Part shown: piece after piece, positions 1,695 to 64,000 of the stretch
Layout of the letters: each line of letters starts with the position of its first letter
How positions within the stretch are numbered: the first letter of the stretch is position 1
NCBI GenBank assembly: GCA_026395915.1
Contig: JAPLXU010000012.1
Span: forward strand, 8,996-72,995
Length of the DNA stretch: 64,000 nt
Source of the DNA: Candidatus Nomurabacteria bacterium
GTDB taxonomy: Bacteria; Patescibacteriota; Minisyncoccia; Phycocordibacterales; UBA9973
Direction of reading: 5' to 3'
Notes under the pieces: model-generated
The model's input: the letters and a program-made list of their open reading frames with translations, nothing else
The model's database searches: none
Told to the model about the DNA's origin: nothing
Translations under genes and position numbers: made by a program

Positions 1695-1724
1695 GGGTCA
1701 GCCAAGATCGGCTGACCCTTTTTT
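1695..1724 (+). terminator. rho-independent terminator
   Basis: Perfect hairpin gggtcagcc-aagatc-ggctgaccc followed by TTTTTT, ~75 nt after the stop at 1621. Confidence 0.7.
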
Positions 1725-1811
1725 CGTACTTCTTCGTTAAGTCTTAATAATCATTTGATATGGTATAAGATATATAAGTCGGGTGGTTATTATTATTTTT
1801 AAAAATTATTT

Positions 1812-2429: not shown

Positions 2430-2497
2430 ATAAATTTTGGCAAAAAAACAGCGCTCCCGTGAGGGGAACGCCGGTTTTGTGATTCCTGATTCTAGGC

Positions 2498-3865: not shown

Positions 3866-4097
3866 AGTCTTGGTTTGTATTTTTCCGTTGTATACCGAAA
3901 GATGCACACACATGCACCCTGTACCGCCAAAACACACTACGTGCGTTCGGCAGTAACCTTGTAAATACTATAAATATCCACAAGGCTACTGCCGAAATAT
4001 ACAGAAAAAACAAGCAAAAGAGCTCTGTTTTCAAGGTTCTAATTCATCTAATCTTCATGAGTATTACCACGAAATTGCTTTTTTCGCAAGGGCTTTA

Positions 4098-12905: not shown

Positions 12906-12960
12906 TAAATAAAACAATACTCAAACTTAGCGATAGCAGAATTTGAGTATAGATAATAAA

Positions 12961-14625
12961 ATGGATCAAGAAATAAAAAATTGTAAACAATGTAAAAAAG
13001 ATTTCGTCATTGAGCCGGACGATTTTGGATTCTATGAAAAAATGAAGGTGCCTCCTCCTGTTTTTTGTCCTGAATGCCGACAACAACAGAGAATACTTCA
13101 TCGAAATTTCAAAACTTTATACAAAAGACCTTCGAGCAAGTCCGGTGAAATGATTATTTCAATGTACAATCCCGACGTTCCTTTTCCTGTCTATGACATT
13201 TCCGAGTGGTGGGGAGACGATTGGGAAGCCTCGTCATACGCGATGGATTTGGATTTATCCATTCCTTTCGTAAAACAAATGGATGAGCTTTTCAAAAAAG
13301 TTCCCCATTTCTCCTTGATGAACACCAAAAGCACGAATTGCGAATATTCAAACATGACTTTGCGTTCAAATAATTGCTATCTGATCTTTGGATGCATTGA
13401 CGATGAAAACTGCGATTACGGCCATATCGTCTGGAGTTCTACCGATTGCACCGACAACTTATATGTTTATAAATGCGAGCTTTGTTACGAATGCATGGAT
13501 TGCATTGGATCTAATAGATTGATTTATTCTGAGGAATGCGAAGCATGTGTCGACTCTATCGGTCTTTTTGATTGTCGTGGTTGTACTAATTGCATAGGTT
13601 GTGTCGGTTTGCGACAGCAGTCTCACAAAATTTTCAATCAACCTGTCACAAAAGAAGAATATCAAGAATTTCTACGCAACTATCCGCTCAATAAAAAAGA
13701 AAGCATAGAATATATTTTGGAAAAAAGGGAGGAACTCAGAAAAAAAATTCCGACTCGCGCGGTTTACGGTTCGCATAATACAAATGTTTCCGGAGATCAT
13801 ATATACAATGCTCACAATGTTCATTATTCTTTTGATATAAAAGGCGGAGAGAATAGTAAATTTTGTTTCACGGCAAAAGAAAATAACGAAGTTTATGATG
13901 GGTCTTTTACTATTGAAAATGAATTCAGTTATCAAATTTTAACTTGCGCCAATAGTCATAACGTGTTTTTTTCACATCTTTTAACTGATTGTAATGAGGG
14001 ATACTATTCCCAATTCTGCTTTAATTCAAAAAATATTTTCGGCTGTATGGGCTTGAGAAATAAGCAATATTGCATTTTGAATAAACAGTACACAAAAGAA
14101 GAATATGAAAAACTTATGCCACAAATCATTGAAAATATGAAAAAAACCGGAGACTGGGGCAATTTCTTTCCGATTTGGATGAGTCCATTCGCGTACAACG
14201 AATCAATCACAAATGAATATATGCCATTAACAAAAAAACAGGCGTTGGATCAAGGTTTTTCTTGGCGAGACGATATTCCAAGTACGACAGGAAAAGAAAA
14301 CTGCGCTTATGAAGACTTACCAAAAGATCCGAAAGAATACAGTGATGAAAAACTTTTGGATAAAATTTTGAAATGCGAGTCTTGCGGGAAAAATTACCGC
14401 TTCATATCTAGGGAAATTGGTTTCTATAAGAGAATGGGCTTGGCGCTTCCGTCGAAATGTTCCAATTGTCGCCATCAGAGACGAATGGATACTCGTAATA
14501 AAAGGGAATTGAATGATTCAACTTGCGCGTCGTGTGGTATTGAAATCGAGACTACTTTTTCAAAAGAAAAGCAAGAAGTATATAAAATTTACTGCGAGAA
14601 ATGTTATCAAAGAGAAATATACTAA
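12961..14625 (+). CDS. cysteine-rich protein, paralogue 1 of a 4-member family (duplicated N/C-terminal zinc-ribbon-like modules plus internal CxxCxxCxxC repeats)
   Basis: The ATG at 12961 is preferred over the TTG at 12943 because it aligns with the paralogue N-termini (..C-x2-C-KKDF-I-E-DDF-FYEK-VP-P-FCP-CR..). Ends ..YCEKCYQREIY. Confidence 0.7.
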   Translation: MDQEIKNCKQCKKDFVIEPDDFGFYEKMKVPPPVFCPECRQQQRILHRNFKTLYKRPSSKSGEMIISMYNPDVPFPVYDISEWWGDDWEASSYAMDLDLSIPFVKQMDELFKKVPHFSLMNTKSTNCEYSNMTLRSNNCYLIFGCIDDENCDYGHIVWSSTDCTDNLYVYKCELCYECMDCIGSNRLIYSEECEACVDSIGLFDCRGCTNCIGCVGLRQQSHKIFNQPVTKEEYQEFLRNYPLNKKESIEYILEKREELRKKIPTRAVYGSHNTNVSGDHIYNAHNVHYSFDIKGGENSKFCFTAKENNEVYDGSFTIENEFSYQILTCANSHNVFFSHLLTDCNEGYYSQFCFNSKNIFGCMGLRNKQYCILNKQYTKEEYEKLMPQIIENMKKTGDWGNFFPIWMSPFAYNESITNEYMPLTKKQALDQGFSWRDDIPSTTGKENCAYEDLPKDPKEYSDEKLLDKILKCESCGKNYRFISREIGFYKRMGLALPSKCSNCRHQRRMDTRNKRELNDSTCASCGIEIETTFSKEKQEVYKIYCEKCYQREIY

Positions 14626-14664
14626 AACATATTTCAGCTATAGCGTAAATGTGTAAATCGGAAA

Positions 14665-16410
14665 ATGAAAGAAGAAAATGAAAACAGAATATGCCAGAAC
14701 TGTAAAAAAGACTTTATCATTGAGTCGGATGATTTTCGATTTTATGAAAAGATTAAAATGCCTGCGCCGACTTTTTGTCCCAATTGTAGATTTCAAAGAC
14801 GGCTGCTTTTTAGAAATAACAGAGTTTTTTACAGACGAGAATGTGCTTTGTGTAGAAAGTCGCTATTAAGTGTTTATAATACAGAAAGGCCGTACATAAT
14901 TTATTGTCGTGATTGTTGGTTTTCAGATAAATGGGATCCAATGAGTTACGGACGTGAATATGATTTTTCTGTTCCATTTTTAAACCAATTTCGATCCTTA
15001 CAGTCAAAAGTTCCGAAGGCTAATCTTAATCAAACCAATTTTATTTCAAGTGATTATTGTAACTATGGTTACGATTTTAGAGAATGTTATTTATTGTTTG
15101 GAGGAAAAAATAATGAAAGAGTCTATTTTGGTAACCAAATTTTAGATTCTCGTGATTCGTTGGATATGTCTTTTTCTGAAAAAATAGAATTGAGCTATGA
15201 AAATTTAGAATGCCAAAGAGTAAATAAACTATTATTCGGCTTTTATTCCACAGACTGTGTTGAAAGCTCTTATTTAATTGATTGTAAAAATTGCATGAAC
15301 TGTTTCGGTTGCGTTGGGCTAGTAAATAAACAATATTGTATTTTTAATGAACAATACACGAAAGAAGAATATAAAAAATTTATAAATTCGAATGATGCTG
15401 GCAGTTTTAAAAATCATCAGAAATTTCTTGGAAAATTGCAAGAGCTAAAGTTAACTATGCCACATCGTTATGCTCGTATTTATAAATCAGTCAATTCTGA
15501 TGGAGACGATCTGTCGGAAGTCAGAAACACACATAATTCTTTTAGTTCCCATAAAGTAGAAAATTCAAAATATTTATTTTTTTGCAGAAATGGAACGAAA
15601 GATTGTTATGATACTTCGTTTCAAGGTTATAATGCTGAACTTCTTTATGAAATTGCCCACGGTTTTGGTGGATCAAATGGAGCTTTTGGTGTCAGAAACT
15701 TTAATAATCAAAATACATGTTACGTTGATGAATGCCAAAATTGCCTAAATGTTTTTGGCTGTGAAGGTCTCACAAAAAAACAATACTGCATTTTAAACAA
15801 ACAATACACGAAAGAGGAATATGAAGAACTTGTCCCGAAAATTATAAAACACATGAGCGATATGCCTTATATTGATCAAAAAGGCAGAGTTTATAAATAT
15901 GGAGAATTTTTCCCGAACGATCTGTCTCCATTTGCTTATAACGAAAGTATAGTGCAAGAATATTTTCCATTAACTAAAGAAGAAGCTTTGAAACATGGGT
16001 ATATGTGGAAAGATAGTGCGACAAGAAATTATAAAATAGATATTGAAAATGAGGATATACCAGATAATATTAAAGATGTTGAAGATGGTATAATAAACAA
16101 AGTGATTGCTTGTGAACATCATGGTAAATGTAAAGATCAGTGTACCGAAGCATTCAAAATCATTCCAGAAGAATTTAAATTTTACAAGAGAATGAATCTG
16201 CCCTTGCCGAGATTATGCCCAAATTGTCGACATTATCAGCGTTTAAAGTTTAGAAACCCTCTCAATCTCTGGCATAGAAAATGTATGTGTGACAGAAATA
16301 ACCATTTTCACGGACAGGATAAATGCGAAGTGGAATTTGAAACAAGTTATGCGCCGGATCGCCCAGAGATAGTTTACTGTGAAAAATGTTATCAGCAAGA
16401 AATTTATTAA
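14665..16410 (+). CDS. cysteine-rich protein, paralogue 2 (tandem with paralogue 1)
   Basis: 581 aa. Same architecture and the same C-terminus (..YCEKCYQQEIY). Contains the 'QYCILNKQYTKEEY' repeats. Confidence 0.7.
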   Translation: MKEENENRICQNCKKDFIIESDDFRFYEKIKMPAPTFCPNCRFQRRLLFRNNRVFYRRECALCRKSLLSVYNTERPYIIYCRDCWFSDKWDPMSYGREYDFSVPFLNQFRSLQSKVPKANLNQTNFISSDYCNYGYDFRECYLLFGGKNNERVYFGNQILDSRDSLDMSFSEKIELSYENLECQRVNKLLFGFYSTDCVESSYLIDCKNCMNCFGCVGLVNKQYCIFNEQYTKEEYKKFINSNDAGSFKNHQKFLGKLQELKLTMPHRYARIYKSVNSDGDDLSEVRNTHNSFSSHKVENSKYLFFCRNGTKDCYDTSFQGYNAELLYEIAHGFGGSNGAFGVRNFNNQNTCYVDECQNCLNVFGCEGLTKKQYCILNKQYTKEEYEELVPKIIKHMSDMPYIDQKGRVYKYGEFFPNDLSPFAYNESIVQEYFPLTKEEALKHGYMWKDSATRNYKIDIENEDIPDNIKDVEDGIINKVIACEHHGKCKDQCTEAFKIIPEEFKFYKRMNLPLPRLCPNCRHYQRLKFRNPLNLWHRKCMCDRNNHFHGQDKCEVEFETSYAPDRPEIVYCEKCYQQEIY

Positions 16411-17199: not shown

Positions 17200-18597
17200 A
17201 TGAGCGAGTTGAGAGAAAAATGCGGAATAGTCGGCATATACGGAAAAAATTTGCCAGTATCAAAGCTAGCCTTTTTTAGTCTTTTCGCTTTGCAACACAG
17301 AGGACAGGAAGCTTCTGGTATAACAACTAGCGACGGAAAAAAGCTTCACAGCCATAAAGGCGTGGGGCTTGTGTCTCAAGTTTATGAAAAAAAAGACATG
17401 GAGAATTTAATAGGACACATAGGAATTGGACATAACAGATATTCGACTTCGGGCGGAGGAGCTCTCGATCATGCTCAACCGATTGTGAATATGGAAAACA
17501 CTTTTGCTTTGGCTCACAACGGCAACCTACCGAGCGTAAAGTCTCTCGAAAAATTTCTTTGCTCAAAAAAAGCTTTGAAAAAAAATCGCATGGATTCAGA
17601 ACTCATTACTGACGCTGTCGATTATTATATGAAAGAAGGCAACTCGCTCGCGAAATCAGTGGAAAAAGCTTTTCCTTTGATCACCGGAGCTTTTTCGCTG
17701 GTAATGATGAATAAGGACACCTTAGTCGCTGTTCGTGACTCTTTCGGAATGCGCCCGCTTGCGCTCGGCAGAATCGGCAAAGGCTATGTCGTTGCTTCGG
17801 AAACATGCGCTCTTAAAACTATTGGCGCGACATTTTCACGAGAAATAAAACCAGGTGAAATGATAGTTATAAACGAAAAAGGGATCAAAAGTATACAACT
17901 GGCAAAAAGCACTCCAAATCATGATATTTTCGAATATGTTTATTTTGCTCGTCCTGACAGTGTATTGAATGGCAAACTAATTTATGAAGTTAGAAAAAAT
18001 TTCGGTAAAATGCTTGCAAATGAATTCAAAACAAAAGTTGATATCATTGTGCCCGTACCAGATACAGCTACTCCAGTCGCGCTCGGCTACAGTGAGGCCA
18101 CCGGCATCCCGATTGAAATGGCTTTGGTAAAAAATCGTTATGTGCATAGGACTTTCATCGAGCCTGATCAAAAGTCTCGCCGACACAGCGTCGCTTTAAA
18201 GCTCATACCACTTCCGCAAATTTTGAAAGGTAAAAAGATTGCGGTTTTAGACGATTCGATTGTGAGGGGGAACACTTGTAAAAGATTAGTGGAAACATTT
18301 TTCAAAGCTGGCGCTAAAGAAGTGCATCTTTTAATTTCCTCTCCACCTATTCGTTTTCCGGATTTTTACGGTATGGATACGCCAAATCAAAATGAACTGA
18401 TAGCATCACATATGACCGTAGAGGAAATCCGCAAGTTTCTCGGCGCCACGTCGCTAAATTATCTTTCACTTGACGGATTAATAAAATCTATCGGCTTGCC
18501 AAAGGAACATCTGTCTACGTCTTGTTTTACCGGTGTTTATCCTATTCCTTTGAAAGAACGTAAAGACGAAGTGAACTATGATGTCCCAAAAGAATAA
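17200..18597 (+). CDS. purF: amidophosphoribosyltransferase
   Basis: N-terminal 'CGIVGIYG' Ntn Cys, plus the PRTase domain 'VLDDSIVRGNT'. The start abuts the purQ stop. Confidence 0.9.
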   Translation: MSELREKCGIVGIYGKNLPVSKLAFFSLFALQHRGQEASGITTSDGKKLHSHKGVGLVSQVYEKKDMENLIGHIGIGHNRYSTSGGGALDHAQPIVNMENTFALAHNGNLPSVKSLEKFLCSKKALKKNRMDSELITDAVDYYMKEGNSLAKSVEKAFPLITGAFSLVMMNKDTLVAVRDSFGMRPLALGRIGKGYVVASETCALKTIGATFSREIKPGEMIVINEKGIKSIQLAKSTPNHDIFEYVYFARPDSVLNGKLIYEVRKNFGKMLANEFKTKVDIIVPVPDTATPVALGYSEATGIPIEMALVKNRYVHRTFIEPDQKSRRHSVALKLIPLPQILKGKKIAVLDDSIVRGNTCKRLVETFFKAGAKEVHLLISSPPIRFPDFYGMDTPNQNELIASHMTVEEIRKFLGATSLNYLSLDGLIKSIGLPKEHLSTSCFTGVYPIPLKERKDEVNYDVPKE

Positions 18598-20626
18598 CTC
18601 AAAAGAAAAATTAAAATTGGCAGTTCTTATTTCCAACGCAGGCACTGGCACAAACCTTCAGGCCATCATTGATGGAATCGAGAAAGACAAAATCAAGATG
18701 GAAATTTGCGCAGTAGTTTCTGATGTTTCCGATGCGGCTGGTTTGGATCGAGCGCGAAAACATAATTTAAAAATCGAAATCTGTCCGACGAAAGAAGCCC
18801 TGCTTCCGCTTTTGCAAAGATTAAATCCGGACTTTGTAGCTCTCGCCGGCTGGAAGCAGATTATTTTAGACGAAGTGATTCTCGCTTTTCCGAATAAAAT
18901 TTTGAATTTGCATCCTGGCTTGATTCCAGATAGCATTGACGGCATAGTAAAAAATCCTGATGGCACTGAAGCGCTTTGGAACAAGGGCAAGTTGACAAAT
19001 AAAGCTATTCAAAATTTCTTGGACAAAAAAGCTACTTTTGCCGGTTCAAGTATTCATTTCTTGACACTTAATTTTGATTTTGGACCGGTTTTAGGTAGAA
19101 CTTTTGAAAAAATTCAAGCCGGAGACACAGTGGATTCTCTATATGCTAGATTAAAAAATAAGGAGAACGAGCTTTATGAAGAAGTTTTAGAAAAATTAAC
19201 CTCACCCCAGCCCTCTCCTGAGAGGAGAGGGGGAATAAATAGACAAAAAATTTTAATAATTGGAAGCGGGGGACGAGAACATGCTATCGGCTGGAAAGTA
19301 GCGCAGTCACCTAGAGCAGGGCAGATTTTTTTTGCACCCGGAAATGCTGGAACGGCGGAACTGGGAACGAATGTAGCAATAGATGCGAAAGATATTTCTA
19401 AACTTTTAGAATTTGCGAAAAATGGAAAAATTAATCTGACTTTGGCTTTACCAGACGATCCGCTCGCTCTCGGCATTGTGGACGAATTTCAAAAAGCTGG
19501 TTTGCGAATCTGGGGTCCTACAAAAAGAGCCGCGCAGATCGAATGGTCAAAGGCGTTTTCAAAAGATTTCATGCGTCGACACAATTTGCCGACTGCGAAA
19601 TTTGAGATATTCAGCGATTTTGAAAAGGCGAAAAATTACGTAAAAAATCAATCATTGCCTATTGTCATCAAAGCAAGCGGGCTCGCTTTAGGAAAAGGCG
19701 TGATTATTTGTGAAACTATAAAAGAAGCGAACGAAACGCTTGAAAATATACTTGTTAAAAAAATATTTGGAGACGCGGGAAACGAAGTTGTGATAGAGGA
19801 GTTTCTTGTCGGACCAGAGATTTCCATTCATGCGTTTTCTGACGGAAAAGATTACAAAATGTTTCCGCCATCACAAGATCATAAAAAAGTCGGAGAAGGG
19901 AACACTGGACCGAATACGGGAGGCATGGGGACGATCAGCCCTTTACCGTTCGTGGATGAAAAACTTTTGAAAACTATCGAGGACACGATCGTTGCGCCGA
20001 CTTTGAAAGCTCTAGCCAAGGACAACGCGCCTTTTGTCGGAGTGCTCTATCCCGGGTTAATACTTACCAAAGATGGGCCGAAAATTTTAGAATACAACGC
20101 GCGCTTCGGTGATCCGGAAACGCAGACATACATGCGACTCTTGGAAACTGACTTACTAGATATTTTCGACGCATGCATTGATGGCACGCTGAAAAATTTA
20201 GAAATCAAATGGAGACCAAAGTCAGCCTGCACGATAGTGCTAGCTTCGGGAGGTTATCCGGGAAAATATGAAAAGGGAAAAGAAATTTTGGGAATTTCTC
20301 CCCTCCTTGTGGAGGAGGGGGTAGGGGGTGGTGATTCAGACCCCCTCTCAAATCTCCCCCTTAGCAAGGGGAGAGGTTCTCAACCACCTCGCCTTTCAGG
20401 CTCTCCTCCTTCGAAAGGAGGAGAGGACGTCGTCATCTTCCACGCTGGCACAAAGATGGAAAATAAAAATTTAGTAACGAATGGCGGAAGAGTGCTCGGA
20501 GTTTCGGCTGTGGGTAAAAATTTGCAAGAAGCGCTCAAAAAAGCCTATAAAGCAATAGAAAAAATTTCTTTTGAAGGAATGCAGTATAGAAAAGATATAG
20601 GCAAATCGGCGTTGGAATTGAAATAA
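18578..20626 (+). CDS. purD: bifunctional GAR transformylase / GAR synthetase (PurN-PurD fusion)
   Basis: N-terminal PurN pattern ('LAVLISNAGTGTNLQAII', 'NLHPGLIP'), then PurD ('ILIIGSGGREHAIGWK', ATP-grasp). Overlaps purF by 20 nt. Contains two in-frame GC-rich hairpin inserts (19199-19235 and ~20293-20430). Confidence 0.8.
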   Translation: MMSQKNNSKEKLKLAVLISNAGTGTNLQAIIDGIEKDKIKMEICAVVSDVSDAAGLDRARKHNLKIEICPTKEALLPLLQRLNPDFVALAGWKQIILDEVILAFPNKILNLHPGLIPDSIDGIVKNPDGTEALWNKGKLTNKAIQNFLDKKATFAGSSIHFLTLNFDFGPVLGRTFEKIQAGDTVDSLYARLKNKENELYEEVLEKLTSPQPSPERRGGINRQKILIIGSGGREHAIGWKVAQSPRAGQIFFAPGNAGTAELGTNVAIDAKDISKLLEFAKNGKINLTLALPDDPLALGIVDEFQKAGLRIWGPTKRAAQIEWSKAFSKDFMRRHNLPTAKFEIFSDFEKAKNYVKNQSLPIVIKASGLALGKGVIICETIKEANETLENILVKKIFGDAGNEVVIEEFLVGPEISIHAFSDGKDYKMFPPSQDHKKVGEGNTGPNTGGMGTISPLPFVDEKLLKTIEDTIVAPTLKALAKDNAPFVGVLYPGLILTKDGPKILEYNARFGDPETQTYMRLLETDLLDIFDACIDGTLKNLEIKWRPKSACTIVLASGGYPGKYEKGKEILGISPLLVEEGVGGGDSDPLSNLPLSKGRGSQPPRLSGSPPSKGGEDVVIFHAGTKMENKNLVTNGGRVLGVSAVGKNLQEALKKAYKAIEKISFEGMQYRKDIGKSALELK

Positions 20627-27046: not shown

Positions 27047-27131
27047 CTCCTCCTGAAACAATTTTTGAAAATACGCCCTCGAGGTCAACAGGACAGGGAA
27101 CCCACTTTTCTTAAAATTGTTTCAGGAGGAG
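27047..27131 (+). ncRNA. conserved structured intergenic element, copy 1 (19-bp perfect closing stem around a conserved 47-nt core)
   Basis: ctcctcctgaaacaatttt ... aaaattgtttcaggaggag encloses GAAAATACGCCCTCGAGGTC-N16-CACTTTTCTT. The 3' arm contains the purH Shine-Dalgarno AGGAGG. Copies 2 and 3 are listed below. Confidence 0.5.
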
Positions 27132-35269: not shown

Positions 35270-35485
35270 ATGCGTAAAATATATTTGCTTTTGATTTTAG
35301 GTATATGGATAGCAATTTTGCCATATCTTGGCTTCCCAGATTCTTGGAAAAATGTCTTAGCGACTCTTTCTGGACTTGGGCTGATGATTATAAGTTATAT
35401 CTTTTATAAAGAAAACAAGGCGAGAGAAACAAAGAAAGAAACTTTTGATAATTTCTCAGAAAATAATGCAAATATCTTCAAATAG
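35270..35485 (+). CDS. small membrane protein (hypothetical)
   Basis: Two predicted TM helices. The start could also be further upstream at 35234. Low information. Confidence 0.25.
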   Translation: MRKIYLLLILGIWIAILPYLGFPDSWKNVLATLSGLGLMIISYIFYKENKARETKKETFDNFSENNANIFK

Positions 35486-36680
35486 TAGTATAAAAAATGC
35501 AACAATAACTCTAGCGATTTTAGGCGCTTTTTTTTTGGGCGCATATGTAGACAACCATAACCGTCCAGCGATAGACAAAGTATTTCTCGCCAACAAGGAA
35601 ATGGCTGTAAAGACTGAAGCCGATTTCTCTCCATTCTGGAAAGTTTGGAACACCATTAATGAAAAATACCCAAAAGCTGACAAAATAACCGACCAAGAGA
35701 GGGTTTATGGAGCCATTTCCGGCCTTATGGGCTCTCTTAATGATCCGTACAGCGTATTCTTTAGCCCTGACGACGCAAAATCCTTTGAAGACGAAATAGC
35801 TGGCAATTTTACTGGAATTGGTATGGAAGTCGGGATAAAGGATAAAATACTCACGGTTATTGCTCCGCTCAAAGATACGCCAGCCTACAGAGCGAACATT
35901 AAGCCCGGTGATAAGATTCTTAAAATCGACAAGACCGTTACTTCTTCTTTGGGCATCGAAGATGCAATAAAATTGATTCGAGGAGAAAAAGGTACACCGG
36001 TTACTCTCACAATTTTTAGAGAAGGAAACAAAGATCCGATTGAAGTTAGAATCGTGAGAGATACCATCAATGTACCAACTTTAGACACTGAGCTCCGACC
36101 TGATGGCATTTTCGTCATAAAACTTTACAGTTTCTCTGCTAACTCGGCTGATCTTTTCCGAAATGCTATGAAAAGTTTTGTTGAATCTAAAACTGACAAA
36201 TTGATTTTAGATTTACGAGGAAACCCAGGTGGATATTTGGATTCAGCCGTTGATATCTCAAGTTGGTTCTTGCCGAGCGGAAAGACAGTCGTGACTGAAG
36301 ACTATGGCAACAATCAAAAACCTGAAATATTTAGAAGTAAAGGTTATAACATCTTCAACGATAAGCTGAAATTTGTCATTTTAATAAATGGCGGTTCGGC
36401 CTCAGCGTCTGAGATCGTAGCTGGCGCCATGCAAGACAATGGGCGAGCGAAACTCGTAGGTAGCCAAAGTTATGGGAAAGGTTCTGTGCAAGAGGCCATA
36501 AAAATCACTCCGGACACTTTCTTAAAAATTACTGTCGCGAAATGGCTCACGCCGAATGGAACTTCTATTTCTGAGAAAGGCCTGACTCCAGATTATCCCG
36601 TAGAAATTACGCAAAAAGATTTGGATGCCAAAAAAGATCCGCAATTAGATAAAGCAGTGGAAGTATTATTAGGCAAATAA
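35445..36680 (+). CDS. ctpA: carboxyl-terminal processing protease (S41 family)
   Basis: PDZ domain. 'ILDLRGNPGG' S41 motif. Possible alternative start at 35466. Confidence 0.85.
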   Translation: MIISQKIMQISSNSSIKNATITLAILGAFFLGAYVDNHNRPAIDKVFLANKEMAVKTEADFSPFWKVWNTINEKYPKADKITDQERVYGAISGLMGSLNDPYSVFFSPDDAKSFEDEIAGNFTGIGMEVGIKDKILTVIAPLKDTPAYRANIKPGDKILKIDKTVTSSLGIEDAIKLIRGEKGTPVTLTIFREGNKDPIEVRIVRDTINVPTLDTELRPDGIFVIKLYSFSANSADLFRNAMKSFVESKTDKLILDLRGNPGGYLDSAVDISSWFLPSGKTVVTEDYGNNQKPEIFRSKGYNIFNDKLKFVILINGGSASASEIVAGAMQDNGRAKLVGSQSYGKGSVQEAIKITPDTFLKITVAKWLTPNGTSISEKGLTPDYPVEITQKDLDAKKDPQLDKAVEVLLGK

Positions 36681-36686
36681 TTTTTT

Positions 36687-36761
36687 CAGCAAACAATTTT
36701 CGAAAATACGCCCTCGAGGTCATAAGGATAAGGAACTCACTTTTCTTAAAATTGTTTACTG
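36687..36761 (+). ncRNA. conserved structured intergenic element, copy 2
   Basis: cagcaaacaatttt ... aaaattgtttactg stem (14 bp, 1 mismatch) around the core CGAAAATACGCCCTCGAGGTCATAAGGATAAGGAACTCACTTTTCTT. Lies 18 nt upstream of the rplI ATG. Confidence 0.5.
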
Positions 36762-36778
36762 AAAAATATAAAATAGAT

Positions 36779-37222
36779 ATGAAAGTAATATTTTTAAGCG
36801 ATGTGCCAAGAGTTGGGAAAAAATATGACGTAAAAGAAGTTAATGATGGTTACGCCATGAATTTTTTGTTGCCGAGAAAATTAGCAACTATGGCTACGCC
36901 AAAGGCTCTTGCAGAACTTGAAACAAGGAAGAAAGAGATCTCAATCGAGAGGGAAGTGCAAGAAGAACTTTTAATGAAAAATCTGGAAGAAATCAAAGGC
37001 AAGACTATCACAATCAAAGGCAAAACAAACGACAAAGGGCATCTCTTTTCCGCGATTCACAAAAAAGAAATTACTGAAGCGATGAAAGAGCAGAATCGCG
37101 CAGAAATTAGCGAAGAATTTATTATTCTAGAAAAACCAATTAAAGAAGTAGGGGAACACGAAATCCAAGTCTCAATAAAAGGCAAAAAGTCCTCGTTTAA
37201 GCTTCTCGTAGAGAAAATATAA
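36779..37222 (+). CDS. rplI: ribosomal protein L9
   Basis: 'MKVIFLSDVPRVGKKYDVKEV' N-terminus (start at the internal Met of the listed ORF). ~148 aa. Confidence 0.85.
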   Translation: MKVIFLSDVPRVGKKYDVKEVNDGYAMNFLLPRKLATMATPKALAELETRKKEISIEREVQEELLMKNLEEIKGKTITIKGKTNDKGHLFSAIHKKEITEAMKEQNRAEISEEFIILEKPIKEVGEHEIQVSIKGKKSSFKLLVEKI

Positions 37223-37283: not shown

Positions 37284-38279
37284 ATGAAATTAGAGGAACA
37301 ACTCAAATCAAAAATTACTTTTCTTAATAAACCTAAACTGTCTGCACATGAAGCAGATAGCAAGTTCAATGCAAGAAGGCTTGAACTTATTCCTCACGTT
37401 AAGAATTATATTTCTAAACATGAAAAGTTTAAAGGAAAAGAAGTTAGAGTTACTATTGCAGAAAAGGGAGTTTCATCTCTGGTATGTATAATTGAAACTA
37501 GTAAAGAAAAAATTGTTTTAAAAATCCATTTAAGCATTACTGACGCTAATGGCGAAGCTCAATTTTTGGAAACATGGGAACGAGCGGGAGTAAAAGTTCC
37601 TCATGTAATTGAAGAAGGCTTGATAAATGGACACGAATACACTTTAATGGAATTTATTGATGCAAGGCCATTAAATGAGGTTTATAAGAAAGGAGAAATA
37701 GTTAAAAGAGAAATCTATGTGGAACTTGGAAGTATTCTTCGCGCGATGCACGAACCGAAGGTAGAGGGCTATGGCAGAGTTGTTAATGGTAAAGCAGAAT
37801 TTTTAAAATTTGATGATTGGATTCACGATGAAGATGTGCAGAAAAAATTCAGATATGTTCAAGAACATAAACTTTTGGGAGATGAACACGGATCACTAGA
37901 TGTTGCATTAAGAGTATTAACTGAATATGCTGATAGAGAAAACAGAAGCAGTTATTGTCATAACGATTTTGGAACTGCAAATATTTTTGCAACGGATCCA
38001 CTGACTATTTTTGATCCTCGTCCAAGATTTAATAATGCGTATTTTGATCTTGGGACTAGTATAATGATGACTATAGCCAATGATAACGGACTGTTAAGAG
38101 CTAAAGAACAATTAGTTAAAGGATACTTCAAAGGTGAACCTTATGATGAAAAGGTTCTGCATGCTTCTATTTTATTAAATGCTTACATGAAATTCCCATA
38201 TTCACATAAAATTAAAAACCTTGAACGAATGAGAAACGTTCAAGAGTACCTCATCAAAAATAAACAAATACTAGATTAG
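37284..38279 (+). CDS. kinase-like phosphotransferase (aminoglycoside/choline-kinase APH family)
   Basis: '[11 protein letters not shown]' fits the HxDxxxxN catalytic loop of the APH/ChoK family. 331 aa. Confidence 0.5.
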
Positions 38280-42690: not shown

Positions 42691-42850
42691 TCGCTAAAAT
42701 ACAATTCAAATACAACCCCTTATAAAATACCTTCAAGAACAATTCAGATGCAACCCCCTATTTCCCCCTTATCAGGGGGACTAAAATACCGAATACTGTG
42801 CTTTCGTATTTTCCCTCCCCTGATAAGGGGAGGATTAAGGAGGGGTTGAA
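42691..42850. repeat. composite GC-rich palindromic repeat, left copy (plus a partial upstream duplication) flanking the DUF559 gene
   Basis: ctaaaat-caattc..CAACCCC-(ccccc ttatca ggggg hairpin)-spacer-(cctcccc tgataa ggggagg hairpin)-GGGGTTG. The 7-bp terminal inverted repeat is CAACCCC/GGGGTTG. Confidence 0.7.
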
Positions 42851-43227
42851 TTCATGCATTTAATTTTTCCAATCAAATCCTCAGCAACACTCTCCGTGTC
42901 TGCCAGAATTTCTTCATTCGTGTATCTTATTATTTTTAATCCAAATTTCTGTTTTAATAAGTTATCTCTTTCTTCATCTCTTGTCTTTTGAAAAGTATGT
43001 ATTTTTCCATCAATTTCTATTGCAAGACCAAGTTTTGAGCAGTAAAAATCTACAACAAAGTGATCTATCGGTTTTTGTCTGGTAAATTTTAAGTTCGCTA
43101 GTTTTTTATTTTTTAAAATTTTACCCCAAAAAACCTTTTCAGCTTCAGTCGTTTTTTTTCGTAACTCTCTAGCGCGAGAAACTAAATTTTTATCATATGG
43201 AATATATGGGATATTGTATTTTTGCAT
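42835..43227 (-). CDS. DUF559 endonuclease-domain protein (Vsr-like fold family)
   Basis: 130 aa with the 'ARELRKKTTEAEKVFW' N-terminal motif typical of DUF559. The C-terminus (..KCMNSTPP) reads into the left repeat. Confidence 0.6.
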   Translation of the reverse strand: MQKYNIPYIPYDKNLVSRARELRKKTTEAEKVFWGKILKNKKLANLKFTRQKPIDHFVVDFYCSKLGLAIEIDGKIHTFQKTRDEERDNLLKQKFGLKIIRYTNEEILADTESVAEDLIGKIKCMNSTPP

Positions 43228-43242
43228 GAAGTTAATTATAAC

Positions 43243-43406
43243 CTAAAATGCAATTCGGTAGATAACTCAAACGCAACCCCCTTTTATCCCCCTTATCAGG
43301 GGGGGCTAAATACCGTTTCGTGCCTTTCGCAAGAACCGTTCTTGCAAAAACTTGCGAAAACGATCGCATTTTATTCCTCCCTGATAAGGGAGGTTAGGAG
43401 GGTTGA
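43243..43406. repeat. composite GC-rich palindromic repeat, right copy (direct orientation relative to the left copy)
   Basis: Same architecture as 42691-42850, with an extra internal palindrome gcaagaac-c-gttcttgc. Confidence 0.7.
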
Positions 43407-46776: not shown

Positions 46777-46808
46777 AAGGCAAGACCTAACATGTTAGGT
46801 CTTGCCTT
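46777..46808 (-). promoter_or_regulatory. perfect 14-bp-stem hairpin in the mraY-ftsW spacer (attenuator/terminator or processing site)
   Basis: aaggcaagacctaac-atg-ttaggtcttgcctt. On the minus strand the closest T-run (ttttaat) follows it only after ~8 nt. Confidence 0.4.
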
Positions 46809-48747: not shown

Positions 48748-48780
48748 TTACATATTTACGCCATGGCTTAAATGTGTAAA

Positions 48781-52902: not shown

Positions 52903-52916
52903 AATTATTGATCTAC

Positions 52917-52997
52917 GTTCTGTGAAGGATTTTAAGAAAAGTGGGTTCCCTGCCCTTAAGACCTCGAGGGCGTATTTTCAAAAATCCTTTACAGAAC
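52917..52997 (-). ncRNA. conserved structured intergenic element, copy 3 (minus strand, fills the scpA-scpB spacer)
   Basis: Minus strand: gttctgtaaaggatttt-GAAAATACGCCCTCGAGGTCTTAAGGGCAGGGAACCCACTTTTCTT-aaaatccttcacagaac. 15 nt upstream of the scpB ATG. Overlaps the scpA stop. Confidence 0.5.
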
Positions 52998-53729
52998 GTT
53001 TGTATTACTTTTTTCCTGCTTACTAATAATAATATCGGCGAAACCATTTTCTTGAATCGCGTCAAGTATCCCGTTTCTGACGAGCTCCAGCATCGCCAAG
53101 AACCCGACTATCACAAACAATTTCTCTTCTCGAGTTGTCGCTTTACCAGCAAAACTTTTGAAGCTTGTTTGAATGGAACTTTGTATTCTATCGGTCAGTT
53201 TACCAATCATTTCCTCAATGCTAATAACTTTTTTCACTTCCGCTTCCGGCAAGAATACTTTTTTGGGCATTCCTCCCAGAACATTCCGAGCAAAATTCAT
53301 CATGCTGTCTTTTGTAATTTGAGTATCCGGCAAAAAAACCAAAACATCATTTTTTCTTTCGAGAGGCGCGAAAATCATTTTCTCGCCAAACATATTTTTT
53401 ACATTTCCTCCGAGTTTCGTAAAAAGTTCATACAGTCGCAAGCGTTCTTCTAAACTCTTTATATCGCCCTCTTCCTCCGTCGTGAGACTCAAATTCGGCA
53501 AAAGCGATTTTGATTTAATGAGAATCAAAGTCGAAGCCACCAACACGAAGCTAGCAATCTCAGCCCTGCCCAGACCTCCGAGTTTGTTCATGTAGCCCAA
53601 GAAATCTTCAGTCACAGTCGCAAGCGACACATCGTTTATGAAAAGTTTTCGTTTTTCCACTAGTTCCAAAAGCAACCCAAAAGGGCCTTCGAAACCTGCT
53701 ATTTTTGCCGTATAACTTCCTGTTTCCAC
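52989..53729 (-). CDS. scpA: segregation and condensation protein A
   Basis: 'FEGPFGLLLELVEKRKL' ScpA N-terminal motif. 246 aa. Confidence 0.85.
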   Translation of the reverse strand: METGSYTAKIAGFEGPFGLLLELVEKRKLFINDVSLATVTEDFLGYMNKLGGLGRAEIASFVLVASTLILIKSKSLLPNLSLTTEEEGDIKSLEERLRLYELFTKLGGNVKNMFGEKMIFAPLERKNDVLVFLPDTQITKDSMMNFARNVLGGMPKKVFLPEAEVKKVISIEEMIGKLTDRIQSSIQTSFKSFAGKATTREEKLFVIVGFLAMLELVRNGILDAIQENGFADIIISKQEKSNTNVL

Positions 53730-53751: not shown

Positions 53752-56433
53752 GTGAAAAAGAAAAATGATAAAAAAAGCGTCCGCCTCTCCAAAAACGTCG
53801 TTCCTGTTGAATACGACATACAATTACAACCGGACTTGGACAATTTTACTTTTGAAGGCGTTGAAACTATCACCCTCTCTATTCTGAAACCGACTAAAAC
53901 ACTAACTCTCCATTCAAAAGAAATTGAAATAGAAACAGCTTCCATAAACAAAGATTCTCAAAAAATGTTCGCAAAAATTTCTTATGACGAGAAAAATGAA
54001 ACTGTGACTTTTGCTTTTCCTGAAACTATTCTTTCAGGAAAAACTAAACTGACCATAGTTTTCAGAGGAATTCTCAATGACAAAATGCGAGGGTTTTATA
54101 GGAGCAAATATACTATCAAAGAAAAAGACTACCATTTAGCGACCACACAATTTGAAGCTACCGATGCGCGAAGAGCTTTCCCTTGTTTTGATGAACCAGC
54201 GCAAAAAGCCATTTTTAATGTTTCTCTCATTGTCCAAAAAGGCAAGACGGCTATCTCAAATACTTTGCCAGTATCTGTCGCGGAACACGATGCTGAATAC
54301 GAAATAGTAAAATTTTCTCCAACGCCGAAAATGTCCACTTACTTGCTCGCATTTATTGTAGGAGACTTTGAATGTCTGGAATCAAAAACTACTCCCACCA
54401 CCTCGTCCTTCAGACACTCCCCCTCAGGCAGGGGGAGAAGTATACGAGTTCGTGTCTTTACCACTCCAGGAAAAAAACATCAAGCCAAATTCGCGCTTGA
54501 TTGCGCGATAAAAACTTTAGAATTTTACGAAAAATATTTCGACATCGCCTATCCTCTGCCCGTGCTCGACATGATAGCTATCCCAGACTTTACAGCCGGA
54601 GCAATGGAAAATTGGGGCGCAATCACGTATCGCGAAAGCGCTATCTTGGTCGATGATGATCATTCTTCGCTCTCAAACAAACAATGGGTGGCACTCATAA
54701 TTGCTCACGAAATATCGCATCAGTGGTTCGGTAATCTAGTGACAATGGAATGGTGGACTCATTTGTGGTTGAACGAGGGATTTGCTTCTTATCTTGAATA
54801 TTTGGCCGTCGATAAACTTTTTCCAAAATGGGATATTTGGACACAATTTATTACTAGCGAACTCTCCTCAGCTTTACGTTTAGATTCTCTCCTTAATACC
54901 CACCCGATAGAAATACCAGTGCATCATCCCGCAGAAATCGGCGAAATATTCGATGAAGTGTCTTATTCAAAAGGAGCGTCAATCATCAGAATGCTTGCGG
55001 ACTTTTTGGGAGAAAAAGATTTTCGAGACGGTTTAAGATTTTACTTAAAAAAGCATAGTTATAAAAATACGGAAACTATCCATCTCTGGCAAGCGTTTGA
55101 AAAAGTTTCAAAAAAGCCCAAAAAAAATGTGACAAAAATGATGCAAAATTGGACTTCAAAACCCGGCTATCCAATGATAAAAGCAGAGATTATAAATGAA
55201 AAATTAAATTTGTCGCAAGAGAGATTTTTTAGCAGTCCGATATCAAAGGCAAAAGCAAAAGAAAAAACCTTGTGGCAAATACCCGTTTCTATAAAAAATA
55301 GCAACACTGCGCGAAAATATCTTTTTAGCCGACTTTCGCAGGCTGTCGAGCCGAGAATGAGCGATTTTTCAGCAGAAAAATACGCGACGGCAAAAAAGAC
55401 ATTTTCGCGCAGTGACTATCAAAAAATAAATATTAGTGAAACAGGATTCTATCGAGTAAATTACTCAAAGGAACTTTTAGAAAAATTTAAAATACAAATT
55501 GAAAAAAAGTTATTACCAGCGCAAGACAGACTTGGAATCATCAGAGATCTTTTTGCCTTAGCTGAAGCTGGAATTGTTTCAACAAAAGATACGTTAGAGT
55601 TTTTAGCAAGCTATAAAAATGAAGACAATTACACAGTTTGGCTTGAACTTGCAACGGGTCTCGGACGAATTGAACAACTTTTTGCAAAAGAATCGGTTAA
55701 GAAAGAAGAGCTAAACAACCTTATCTTAAATTTATTTTCTCCTCTTGCAAACAAACTCGGTTGGGAAAAAAAGAAAGGAGAAACTCACACCGACGTGCTC
55801 TTGCGCTCACTCGTCATCACTCGAGCCGGACGTTCTGGTGATATAAAAATAATTGCTGAAGCGAAAAATAAATTCACGGCCATGCAAAAAGGTAAACACA
55901 TTGATCCAGACGTTCGTGGTGCTGTCTATGCGACTATCGCAAGAAACGGTGGAATGAAAGAATATCAAACTCTTCTCAAGCGATATAAAGAAGAAACCTT
56001 ACATGAAGAAAAAAACAGGATTGGAAACACTTTGGGAGATTTTCAAGAAACTAAAATTTTGAAACTTGTTTGCGAATTCGCTATGTCAAAATATGTCAGG
56101 GCCCAAAATACTATCGCCATCATTTCGGCTGTTGGAGCAAATCCGTTAGGCAGAGATATCTGGCTAAATTTTGTTCAAAAAAATTGGAAGACACTTGTCT
56201 CGCGTTATGGCGACGGTGGTCATACGCTAGCACGACTTGTGAAAGCCATAGGCGGAAGCGCAGAAGAAAAACACTTAAAATCATTCAAAAAATTCTTCAA
56301 AACTCATTTTGCGCCTGGAGCCGAGAGAGCGATAGAACAAGTATTGGAACGTCTTGAGAGCAATATCGCTTGGTTGAGAAGAGAAACGAAAAAGCGTCGC
56401 GGGAAACCCACGACGCTTGTGGCCAAAAATTGA
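53752..56433 (+). CDS. pepN: aminopeptidase N (M1 family)
   Basis: 'GAMENWG' exopeptidase motif. 'HEISHQWFGNLVTMEWW..NEGFA' zinc site. Contains an in-frame GC-rich hairpin insert at ~54400-54442. Confidence 0.9.
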   Translation: MKKKNDKKSVRLSKNVVPVEYDIQLQPDLDNFTFEGVETITLSILKPTKTLTLHSKEIEIETASINKDSQKMFAKISYDEKNETVTFAFPETILSGKTKLTIVFRGILNDKMRGFYRSKYTIKEKDYHLATTQFEATDARRAFPCFDEPAQKAIFNVSLIVQKGKTAISNTLPVSVAEHDAEYEIVKFSPTPKMSTYLLAFIVGDFECLESKTTPTTSSFRHSPSGRGRSIRVRVFTTPGKKHQAKFALDCAIKTLEFYEKYFDIAYPLPVLDMIAIPDFTAGAMENWGAITYRESAILVDDDHSSLSNKQWVALIIAHEISHQWFGNLVTMEWWTHLWLNEGFASYLEYLAVDKLFPKWDIWTQFITSELSSALRLDSLLNTHPIEIPVHHPAEIGEIFDEVSYSKGASIIRMLADFLGEKDFRDGLRFYLKKHSYKNTETIHLWQAFEKVSKKPKKNVTKMMQNWTSKPGYPMIKAEIINEKLNLSQERFFSSPISKAKAKEKTLWQIPVSIKNSNTARKYLFSRLSQAVEPRMSDFSAEKYATAKKTFSRSDYQKINISETGFYRVNYSKELLEKFKIQIEKKLLPAQDRLGIIRDLFALAEAGIVSTKDTLEFLASYKNEDNYTVWLELATGLGRIEQLFAKESVKKEELNNLILNLFSPLANKLGWEKKKGETHTDVLLRSLVITRAGRSGDIKIIAEAKNKFTAMQKGKHIDPDVRGAVYATIARNGGMKEYQTLLKRYKEETLHEEKNRIGNTLGDFQETKILKLVCEFAMSKYVRAQNTIAIISAVGANPLGRDIWLNFVQKNWKTLVSRYGDGGHTLARLVKAIGGSAEEKHLKSFKKFFKTHFAPGAERAIEQVLERLESNIAWLRRETKKRRGKPTTLVAKN

Positions 56434-61470: not shown

Positions 61471-61554
61471 GCCGGAGTGGCGAAATTGGTAACCGCAATT
61501 GACTCAAAATCAATCGGGGGCAACCCCTTGGGAGTTCGAGTCTCCCCTCCGGCA
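61471..61554 (+). tRNA. tRNA-Leu (anticodon CAA), class II with long variable arm; no encoded CCA
   Basis: Acceptor GCCGGAG/CTCCGGC+A. Anticodon stem-loop attga-CTCAAAA-tcaat. T-arm GGGAG-TTCGAGT-CTCCC. Variable stem cgggg..cccc. Confidence 0.85.
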
Positions 61555-62061: not shown

Positions 62062-63585
62062 ATGAAAATAAAGATGCAAAATGAGCAACAAAAGATAGGC
62101 TTTTTTATTAAAGAATTACGCGAACACCGCGGAATGACACAAGAAGAACTCGCAAAAGCTCTCAATACTTCTCAAAGCTCAATTCCAAGAATGGAAAAAG
62201 GTGAGCAAAATTTCACCACAGAATTACTCTCAAAAATAAGTAATGTTTTAGACCATCAAATAGTTTCAATAAATGATTCAATAGACTTTCAAGTGAACGG
62301 AGGTAAAAAATTGAGCGGGACAATTAAAACAAATTTTTCCAAAAACGGTTCGGTGGGTCTTCTTTGCGCGTCGCTTTTAAACAACGGAACAACGACCCTG
62401 CATGGTATTGCTCGAATTGAAGAGGTTTATAGAGTAATTGAAATTCTAGAAAGCATCGGCGTTATCGTAAGATGGCTCAATCAAAATACCTTGACTATCA
62501 CGCCTCCAAAAAAATTCAATTTAGAAAATATCAATACAGAATCAGCAATCAAAACTCGCTCTGTCGTGATGCTCATGGGACCTCTCGTCCATAAACTGTC
62601 TTCCTTCTCGATTCCCCACCCGCACGGATGCAATTTAGGCAAAAGAACAATTGCAGCTCATATTTACGCGCTTGAAAAACTTGGAATAAAAATTAAAACC
62701 ACTAGCGAAAAATATGAAATTACGGCTAAAAGAATGAAATCAGCAGAAATAGTAATGTACGAATCTGGAGATACTGCCTGCGAAAATGTTTTGACTGCCT
62801 CGGCACTTATCCAAGGCGAAACAAAAATAAATTTTGCCAGCGCAAATTACATGGTGCAAGAAGTTTGTTTCTTTCTCGAAGCTTTGGGTGTAAAGATCGA
62901 TGGTATAGGCACTGCCAGTCTAACTGTCTACGGGATAAAAGAAATCAACAAAGACATTGAATATTGGAACAGCGAGGACCCTATAGAATCAATGATGTTT
63001 ATTTCAGCTGGAATTATTACTGATTCAAAACTTACAATTACTCGAGCACCGATTGACTTCTTGGCGCTTGAATTGGAAAAATTAAAAAGAATGAATTTAA
63101 AATACAAAACTTCGAAAGTTTATTATTCATTTAACGGCAGAACAAAACTTGTCGATATAGAAATATTTCCAAGTAAATTAATTGCGCTGAATGACAAACT
63201 TCATTCAAATCCCTATCCGGGAATAAATATAGATAACCTGCCTTTTTTTGTGCCAGTTGCTATCAAAGCCAAAGGACAGACCATGATTCACGATTGGGTT
63301 TACGAAAATAGAGCTATATATCTTACAGAATTAAATCGTCTAGGCGCAGATATTACTCTCGCTGATCCGCATCGTCTATATATCAATGGTGGTACGCCTC
63401 TTCGAGGGGCCCAAGTAGTTTGCCCTCCGGCCTTGCGTCCATCAATGGTGATTCTCATCTCAATGCTTGGAGCAAGTGGCACTTCAATTTTGCGAAATGT
63501 CTATATGATAAATCGAGGTTATGAAGAAATCGCCGAAAGACTAAACTCCATCGGCGCAGATATTAAAATCATCAAAGGAAACTAA
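62062..63585 (+). CDS. murA: UDP-N-acetylglucosamine 1-carboxyvinyltransferase (MurA) with N-terminal XRE-type helix-turn-helix domain
   Basis: N-terminus 'LRELREHRGMTQEELAKALNTSQSSIPRMEKGE' is an XRE HTH. Then the EPT fold with the active-site loop 'HPHGCNLGKRT' (Cys present). 507 aa. Confidence 0.75.
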   Translation: MKIKMQNEQQKIGFFIKELREHRGMTQEELAKALNTSQSSIPRMEKGEQNFTTELLSKISNVLDHQIVSINDSIDFQVNGGKKLSGTIKTNFSKNGSVGLLCASLLNNGTTTLHGIARIEEVYRVIEILESIGVIVRWLNQNTLTITPPKKFNLENINTESAIKTRSVVMLMGPLVHKLSSFSIPHPHGCNLGKRTIAAHIYALEKLGIKIKTTSEKYEITAKRMKSAEIVMYESGDTACENVLTASALIQGETKINFASANYMVQEVCFFLEALGVKIDGIGTASLTVYGIKEINKDIEYWNSEDPIESMMFISAGIITDSKLTITRAPIDFLALELEKLKRMNLKYKTSKVYYSFNGRTKLVDIEIFPSKLIALNDKLHSNPYPGINIDNLPFFVPVAIKAKGQTMIHDWVYENRAIYLTELNRLGADITLADPHRLYINGGTPLRGAQVVCPPALRPSMVILISMLGASGTSILRNVYMINRGYEEIAERLNSIGADIKIIKGN

Positions 63586-63653
63586 TGCGCCTTTCGAGAA
63601 ATAACTTTTTGCGGGGTTTCGAGGCTGGCGAGCCGAAAACTTCAGGATTTTTT

Positions 63654-64000
63654 ATGCTTAAAAAAATCCGTACCAAAAAAAAGTTTATTTCTCGAAAGGC
63701 GCCGAGAGTTATTGTTATTCTTGGTCAAACTGCCACTGGCAAAAGTAATTTAGCAGTAAAAATCGCCCAAAAAATTAATGGCGAAATAATTTCAGCTGAT
63801 TCGAGACAAGTTTATAAGTGGCTTAACATTGGAACTGGAAAAATTACAAAAAAGGAAATGAGAGGAGTTCCTCATCATCTTCTCGACGTAGTAAAACCAA
63901 AAGAAAAATTCACTGTTGCTAAATACAAAGAATTAGCTGAAGAAAAAATTAAAGATATAATTTTTCGAGGAAAAACACCGATAATCTGTGGTGGCACAGG
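63654..64000 (+). CDS. miaA: tRNA dimethylallyltransferase (5' partial; continues past window end)
   Basis: 'VIVILGQTATGKS' P-loop. 'ISADSRQVYK..IGTGK' is also typical of MiaA. No stop within the window. Confidence 0.8.
   Translation, partial: MLKKIRTKKKFISRKAPRVIVILGQTATGKSNLAVKIAQKINGEIISADSRQVYKWLNIGTGKITKKEMRGVPHHLLDVVKPKEKFTVAKYKELAEEKIKDIIFRGKTPIICGGT

Follow-up and report, generated by a model that had tools for sequence, protein, structure and literature searches.

The 64-kb stretch of a Candidatus Nomurabacteria genome analyzed here (hereafter the window), which belongs to the Candidate Phyla Radiation (CPR), codes on its plus strand for a CtpA-like S41 peptidase with a PDZ domain (35445..36680) followed by rplI, the gene for ribosomal protein L9 (36779..37222), a gene order that is kept across Nomurabacteria. 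The spacer between the two is occupied by a hairpin of 85 nt (36682..36766, plus strand), delimited by an inverted-repeat search, with the ctpA stop codon 1 nt before its 5' arm and the rplI ATG 12 nt beyond its 3' arm. The earlier note on this DNA had reported a conserved structured element at 36687-36761 between these same genes; the element is indeed present, and its neighbors, an S41/PDZ peptidase upstream and L9 downstream, are the ones named there, but that span cuts 5 bp from each arm, the true one being 36682-36766. Judged by sequence comparison, this hairpin is a member of a family of hairpin insertion elements, ~85-95 bp long, that is restricted to one lineage, a subgroup of Candidatus Nomurabacteria.

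The 5' arm (36682..36700, plus strand) consists of an outer part, TTTTTCAG(C), which is specific to this locus, and an inner part, AAACAATTTT, which is common with a second copy of the element at guaA-purH (copy 1, below; the ctpA-rplI element is copy 2). The 3' arm (36748..36766, plus strand) carries the outer part CTGAAAAA, of which TTTTTCAG is the reverse complement. Taken as a whole, the 19-nt arms (TTTTTCAGCAAACAATTTT / AAAATTGTTTACTGAAAAA) are 95% complementary, with one C·A mismatch and exactly 47 nt between them. These 47 nt form the core (36701..36747, plus strand), which reads C GAAAA UACGCCCUCGAGGUCAUAAGGAUAAGGAACUCAC UUUUC UU and in which RNAalifold pairs GAAAA (36702..36706, plus strand) with UUUUC (36741..36745, plus strand) as the predicted helix P2. 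The middle of the invariant core block is an 8-nt palindrome, CCTCGAGG (36712..36719), which is alike on both strands and which in one copy of a relative (L028b, below) is 10 nt long, CCCTCGAGGG. Among the other motifs of the core are the purine-rich GAGG, AGGA and AAGG, and CCCUC. Copy 2 recurs unchanged over its full length in 9 further contigs from this species.

Copy 1 (27047..27131, plus strand) lies between guaA and purH and has a perfect 19-bp stem, the 3' arm of which holds the purH Shine-Dalgarno sequence GGAGGAG. The earlier note had stated that copy 2 has the same core as copy 1, which we could confirm with 41 of 47 positions identical (36701-36747 versus 27066-27112). The inner 10 bp of the arms (AAACAATTTT / AAAATTGTTT) are likewise identical between the two copies, and the outer 9 bp are unrelated and self-complementary within each copy. 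Copy 3 (52915..52999, minus strand), which was absent from the earlier note and was recovered through 21-mer and inverted-repeat searches, lies between scpA and scpB, with the scpA stop inside its 5' arm. Five further copies occur in four other Nomurabacteria-like assemblies (relatives are designated below by L-numbers for their loci or assemblies): two in L028, here L028a and L028b, and one each in L056, L077 and L078/L079. Copy 3 has orthologs in L028, L077 and L078/L079, and the copies of the window and of its relatives together occupy five gene junctions, namely guaA/purH, ctpA/rplI, scpA/scpB, ribF-like/eamA and rpmE/prfA.

These relatives came to light by different routes. An exact-pattern scan of 185,579 species genomes returned 55 loci, of which 54 were chance matches in high-GC genomes and the one real match was L028 (Candidatus Nomurabacteria Baikal-deep-G186). 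The same kind of scan over the JGI metagenomes gave one real match, the L056 copy between rpmE and prfA, and the L077 and L078/L079 carriers, with their copies at scpA/scpB, were reached via ScpB homologs. The exact patterns demanded a ATACGCCC-type sequence and missed variants such as that of L077 (CTTCGCCC), so that diverged copies escape them. Scans of IMG/VR yielded first 0 matches and then 12 chance matches, none of which fits the covariance model, and blastn against phage and plasmid collections found no match. That model, R1, was built from six copies and used to search ~300 kb of the window and relatives; it scores the seven distinct sense copies at 96-106 bits (98.7 bits and an E-value of 4e-20 for copy 2) and a copy with a flipped core in L078 at 81 bits, over a background of at most 16 bits, and within those ~300 kb it retrieved the known copies only, with no diverged extras. 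At each of two loci, the 8-9 independent samples of the window species all carry the element, and without variation. [quoted passage not shown]

Insertion at tightly packed gene junctions

Comparison with orthologous sites in relatives provides filled and empty versions of three of the junctions. At ctpA-rplI, the filled site of the window has a 98-nt spacer, versus 4-23 nt at the empty sites of L070, L071, L072 and L075, whose L9 proteins are 77-86% identical. The scpA-scpB junction is filled in copy 3, L028a, L077 and L078 and is empty in L066 and L068, where the two genes abut or overlap. The ribF-like-eamA junction is filled in L028b and empty in L078, where the genes overlap. The hairpin is thus an insertion, as established by its filled and empty orthologous sites. 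It is inserted at the junctions of tightly packed, probably translationally coupled genes, at which the element itself takes up the whole of the new spacer.

The fit between the element and its flanking genes is close throughout the family. The downstream start codon lies 7-18 nt past the 3' arm in every copy, and the upstream stop falls inside the 5' arm in four of the eight distinct copies (copy 3, L028a, L028b and L078). Among the others, it is formed within the first core bases in L077, lies at most 5 nt before the arm in copy 2 and L056 and is found 20 nt upstream in copy 1. None of the filled/empty comparisons displays a direct target-site duplication; instead, the duplicated flank is inverted. 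Part of the open reading frames (ORFs) of the window were scanned with Pfam, and the remaining ones were assigned by synteny with annotated relatives. It is solely from the filled and empty sites that we infer mobility, because no transposase, recombinase or reverse transcriptase was found in the 64-kb window.

Orientation is a further shared feature: the core reads in the same direction as both flanking genes at all five independent loci, and the window species displays a single orientation in 8-9 samples per locus. An attempt to separate the direction of replication from that of transcription by means of GC skew was uninformative, for the skew follows the gene strand.

Origin of the stem and constraint on the core

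The unit shared among the loci is the 47-nt core together with ~5-10 bp of the inner arms (AAAnAATTTT ... AAAATTnTTT), and the outer 9-14 bp of the stems differ from locus to locus. The source of these outer parts can be seen in L028b, where the 5' outer arm, AAGCTTGCGAG, codes for the conserved C-terminus (...QACE*) of the upstream protein, which ends in ...KKC* at the empty site of L078. The 5' outer arm is therefore ancestral coding sequence and the 3' outer arm a new inverted copy of it. In copy 2, the 3' outer arm and the downstream spacer (CTGAAAAATATAAAATAGATATG) align with the spacer of L072 (CTGCGAAATAACAAAATAATATG), which hints that here TTTTTCAG would be the copied arm and the 3' outer arm the original, the reverse of L028b; the A-richness of the sequence makes this second case no more than suggestive.

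Across the stems, 14 of 24 pairs have changed on both sides with 97% of the cells paired, a result matched by 0 of 500 shuffles. When the earlier note described the closing stem of copy 2 as different from that of copy 1 and still complementary, it was right about the sequences, but this pattern is not simple RNA covariation and does not amount to clean evidence of a selected RNA structure. Among the 192 stem cells there are 0 G·U pairs; of the five imperfect ones, one is A·A and the other four are mismatches of the C·A type. We propose that the outer stem is made at the DNA level, with the element's own inner palindrome priming a fold-back or template-switch synthesis that would copy the flank and so lengthen the stem. 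If the stem is a DNA-level copy, the differences between paralogous stems are not classical RNA covariation. If this fold-back model is true, it would represent an unusual way for a mobile sequence to generate its own stem. The element also carries a more general warning: seemingly compensatory stems among paralogous repeats can come from the templated inverted duplication of a flank and are, by themselves, no proof of a selected RNA fold.

Orthologous copies provide a different kind of evidence. At scpA/scpB, four species carry copies that are orthologs, with homologous arms and a signature in the C-terminus of ScpA that the carriers share. The orthologous cores are identical at 42/47, 42/47, 41/47 and 46/47 positions (87-98%), versus 43-50% at 4-fold degenerate sites between the same species, for which the random expectation is 26%. 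All seven distinct sense copies in the family have cores of exactly 47 nt without a single indel. The orthologous stems stay at 19-24 bp and remain near-perfect through two-sided changes, such as the replacement of G-C by C-G between L028a and L078, and within P2 an A-U pair is replaced by C-G in L077 and L078. These comparisons place the core clearly under constraint. Decay would have been expected of an inert relic; therefore, either selection or active correction maintains the stem and the core.

The predicted RNA fold comprises a long closing stem, P1, of 19-24 near-perfect base pairs (-17.8 to -43 kcal/mol), the 5-bp helix P2 (GAAAA/UUUUC) and a loop with weak internal helices, and both strands fold about equally well. 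A call of the functional strand from wobble pairs proved contradictory, with the variation in the internal helix P4 fitting the sense strand and that in P3 the antisense strand; read on the mRNA strand, two of the stem mismatches are wobbles and two are not. In the whole window, Rfam 15 reports at its gathering threshold only a tRNA at 61471-61554, and a permissive scan of 36640-36800 retrieved only generic long-hairpin miRNA precursors (best 20.3 bits versus a gathering threshold of 100; E 0.11). No terminator-like site was detected in 36500-36900, and five of the six copies first read have no T run after the 3' arm. A sigma-70 scan of the same interval gave one 9/12 match, equal to the shuffled expectation of 1.0, with TTAAAA at 36746, where it starts in the core, and, after 17 nt, TAAAAT in the downstream spacer. 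Coding capacity was also considered and rejected: the core has one open sense frame, and in an alignment read by eye its variable positions display no third-position bias.

A proposed retained insertion module and its alternatives

We tentatively favor the interpretation that the element, a dispersed insertion module, is of mobile origin and has been kept by purifying selection, most likely as an intercistronic mRNA hairpin. Under this interpretation, it would be co-transcribed with ctpA and rplI and would form in the message a stem extending from the ctpA stop to 12 nt before the rplI start, with the conserved loop as its cap. Such a stem could couple or limit initiation at the downstream gene and might also offer a double-stranded site for processing or stability, while the conserved core, with its purine-rich motifs, its CCCUC and a palindrome that inversion leaves intact, could be a putative sequence-specific binding platform. 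A more specific proposal, which we regard as doubtful, is that the 47-nt core, as a functional RNA or an enzyme recognition site, defines a new mobile module of the CPR that inserts at gene junctions, builds its stem by copying 9-14 nt of flank, is kept as a regulatory or processing hairpin and has a core that can be inverted. Should the core turn out to function as RNA or to serve as a recognition site, it would constitute a new CPR-specific module and might offer a route to its protein partner.

Several observations count against a retained mRNA hairpin. L078 and L079, two assemblies independent of each other, have the core turned around with respect to scpA/scpB, and yet it is identical to that of L077 at 46 of 47 positions. 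The arms around this flipped core are homologs of the L028a arms, and no other copy has the 3 inserted nucleotides found in its core; the CCTCGAGG palindrome is unchanged by the inversion. This configuration points either to an orientation-independent role at the DNA level or to a recent inversion between the arms in a copy that is beginning to decay. The stems, which on the core-sense strand have 0 G·U pairs versus 4 mismatches of the C·A type, bear no sign of selection at the RNA level, and the helices predicted inside the core are weak and without double changes, their variation being wobble-compatible on opposite strands. The spread of the element is also very narrow, with 1 true match in 185,579 species genomes and 1 in the JGI metagenomes by exact patterns; there is no presence/absence polymorphism among the 8-9 samples per locus within the species; and the 64-kb window has no transposase, recombinase or reverse transcriptase. 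The earlier designation of a structured element holds for the conserved core and the long stem, which resemble no known RNA family, but has to be qualified in that the whole hairpin is an insertion, an outer arm in L028b is inverted from ancestral coding sequence, the stem lacks G·U pairs and the core is flipped in one lineage; the element is in the first place a dispersed insertion.

The principal alternative, unlikely in our estimate and still the strongest of the rivals, is a selfish small palindromic repeat comparable to MITEs, Rickettsia palindromic elements (RPEs) or repetitive extragenic palindromic sequences (REPs), without a role for the host, in which the core would be kept by a trans-acting mobilizing enzyme together with conversion and the hairpin would be merely tolerated. 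The insertion relative to close relatives at three loci, the multiple copies at unrelated gene junctions and the patchy distribution among relatives whose ScpB proteins are ~80% identical, with a star-like tree, are all in keeping with such a repeat. So are the stems without G·U made by copying at the DNA level, the occurrence of the core in either orientation and the presence in the same genomes of other families of hairpin inserts, among them some in frame within an M1 peptidase and, in L065 and L076, other hairpins at the same junction. However, under this scenario the fixed orthologs should decay, yet their cores are far more alike than the 4-fold degenerate sites and free of indels, and their stems remain near-perfect through compensatory change. 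The lack of direct target-site duplications, the absence of a transposase in 64 kb and the sense orientation at all five independent loci also speak against it, and frequent conversion is unlikely because the copies per genome are few (3 in 64 kb).

Less probable again is an element acting purely as DNA, either as a protein-binding or cruciform site or as an inverton with inverted repeats of 19-24 bp, independent of the direction of transcription. The flipped and still conserved core between the homologous arms in L078/L079 speaks for such an element, and the palindrome of 8-10 bp at the center of the invariant block, CC(C)TCGAGG(G), the strict Watson-Crick pairing of the arms without G·U and their origin through inverted duplication at the DNA level would all suit it. 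Against this, 47 bp is very short for recombinase-mediated inversion, the window has no invertase or recombinase gene, the promoter-like match does not exceed the shuffled expectation (1 versus 1.0) and the core is asymmetric outside its 8-nt center. Moreover, the five independent loci have one orientation and the indels are confined to the flipped copy. The possibility that the palindrome is an avoided restriction site was also discarded, as CTCGAG is not depleted in the window (16 sites versus 9.7 expected).

An altogether improbable reading is that of a small RNA of a new class, catalytic (a self-cleaving ribozyme) or ligand-binding (a riboswitch), closed by the variable stem P1. The strongly conserved core, the variable closing helix, the multiple copies in sense orientation within operons and the patchy occurrence recall the small self-cleaving ribozymes, and P2 has the one compensatory A-U to C-G change. 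Nevertheless, the models for hammerhead, twister, twister-sister, pistol, hatchet, HDV and hairpin ribozymes find no match even at E<=10, nor does any riboswitch model at that threshold; a perfect P1 of 19-24 bp is too stable for a switch; the internal helices are without covariation; and the flipped copy is still conserved. We considered a riboswitch specifically, in the form of a ZTP sensor upstream of purH or a global signal of the ppGpp type, and dropped it, as the downstream genes are unrelated (purH, rplI, scpB, eamA and prfA) and P1 is far too long. Finally, chance or low-complexity similarity, the objection against which the earlier note had proposed to test its claim, has a negligible probability, since the 21-mer GAAAATACGCCCTCGAGGTCA occurs 3 times in the window with at most 1 mismatch versus 0.00 expected from 100 shuffles, the core is not AT-rich like its flanks, the covariance-model scores are far above background and the element recurs in four other assemblies.

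Other hairpin inserts and parallels in known systems

The window and its relatives harbor several other hairpins. A second family is represented at 55305-55414 (plus strand), within the ORF 53752-56433, by a hairpin with 27-nt arms and a 56-nt center. It is inserted in frame in the gene for an M1 aminopeptidase, to which it adds ~38 amino acids, an RPE-like behavior in a CPR genome; L068 and L028 lack this insert, and in L066 its place is taken by a different hairpin. An intergenic relative at 63587-63702 (plus strand) has the same center, TTTCGnAGGCTGnCGAGCCGAnAA, with different 24-nt arms and begins directly after the ORF 62062-63585, which codes for a helix-turn-helix and EPSP-synthase-like protein. 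Two related hairpin repeats (CCCTTATCAGGGG...) at 42765-42830 and 43290-43390 surround an ORF for a DUF559 (Vsr-like) endonuclease (42835-43227, minus strand), an arrangement that may represent a small mobile cassette for the endonuclease. Spacerless palindromes, perfect or nearly so, are found exactly at gene junctions at 46777-46808, 48748-48779 and 14627-14654, that is, at ftsW/mraY, after VanY and between the ORFs 12943-14625 and 14665-16410. Within the purN-purD fusion ORF (18578-20626), a 30-nt imperfect inverted repeat (20288-20383) falls in a gap of ~95 amino acids between the Pfam domains GARS_A and GARS_C and may be another intragenic hairpin insert. Small unrelated hairpins also occur in relatives at scpA/scpB and guaA/purH (L065 1267-1325, L076 1170-1215 and L070 27-70), the last of which adds 18 codons to the guaA reading frame. 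In this clade, gene junctions appear to be hot spots for hairpin inserts.

As for the wider context of the window, its first 4,000 positions (1-4000) have a G+C content of 0.50, versus ~0.35-0.40 in most of the window, and code for a LUD-domain protein, a xylose-isomerase-like TIM barrel and one protein without a Pfam match; this segment may be of foreign origin. Between rplI and rpmA lies a gene for an APH-family phosphotransferase (37284-38279, plus strand), and in L070, L071 and L075 rpmA directly follows rplI. The region 10008-33164 specifies a near-complete de novo purine pathway (purL, purQ, purF, purN-purD, purA, guaB, guaA, purH, purE, purM, purC and purB), with the assignments of purE, purM, purC and purB resting on synteny with annotated relatives; its presence is of note, as many CPR genomes are reported to be without nucleotide biosynthesis. 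As far as we are aware, the genomes of the CPR, or Patescibacteria, are tiny and densely packed, and almost nothing is known of their non-coding or repetitive DNA. The present family shows that such genomes gain and keep small hairpin inserts exactly at the junctions of genes that are probably coupled in translation, with a sister family residing inside a coding gene.

By analogy with known systems, the element appears most like the RPEs and the hairpin-forming MITEs such as ERIC and Correia. RPEs are small dispersed palindromic insertions of ~100-150 bp in a reduced genome, which come in several families, have no recognizable transposase and preserve the reading frames into which they insert (PMC10969869). 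The element shares with them the dispersed palindromic inserts, the several families per genome and the lack of a visible transposase in the 64-kb window. As regards reading frames, the upstream gene takes its last codons and its stop from the 5' arm in four of eight copies, and the M1 peptidase gene contains the sister family (55305-55414) in frame. It differs from the RPEs in being intergenic at all 5 loci and 85-95 bp long, in conserving the loop rather than the whole palindrome, in copying its outer stem from the local flank, in having no sequence similarity to them and in its host phylum, the CPR. The MITEs ERIC/YPAL and Correia/NEMIS, together with BOX and RUP, are co-transcribed with their neighbors, and their long RNA hairpins can affect the processing or stability of the flanking cistrons (PMC10969869). 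Like these, the element is small (85-95 bp), multi-copy, non-autonomous and intergenic and has no internal ORF. MITEs possess direct target-site duplications, and their terminal inverted repeats are conserved; in the element, the copies have in common only 5-10 bp at the inner end of the arms, and the flank duplication is inverted rather than direct; no related autonomous insertion sequence with the same ends was seen in the 64 kb of the source genome or in the short loci of its relatives.

The other parallels are more distant. REPs have a conserved stem with a GTAG/CGTC head and a variable loop, are mobilized by RAYT transposases of the Y1 HUH type and have been proposed to stabilize mRNA. 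The element resembles REPs and REPINs as a short extragenic palindrome between genes, with the hairpin as the functional or recognized form; however, its loop is conserved and its stem is not, its arm ends have no GTAG/CGTC tag, and the Pfam scan detected no RAYT-like Y1 transposase among the window ORFs that it covered. As in invertons, inverted repeats flank a segment, which is seen in both orientations between sister lineages (L077 versus L078/L079) and in a single one among the 8-9 samples per locus of the window species; the element differs from invertons in the 47-bp length of this segment, in the lack of a recombinase in the window and of a promoter beyond the shuffled level and in its multiple copies at housekeeping junctions. 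Hammerhead, twister, pistol and hatchet ribozymes have a conserved core of ~50 nt and an arbitrary closing helix, are patchy and multi-copy and often reside in operons or mobile DNA. The element matches them in the ~50-nt conserved core, the closing helix of variable sequence, the multiple copies and the patchiness, and departs from them in its lack of similarity to Rfam families, its far longer closing helix and the lack of an internal fold supported by covariation. In integron attC sites the outer R and L boxes are conserved and the center is variable, which is the reverse of the situation seen here. Unusual in the element are the conserved loop combined with locus-specific arms derived from the flank, the constraint on its orthologs and its residence in a CPR host.
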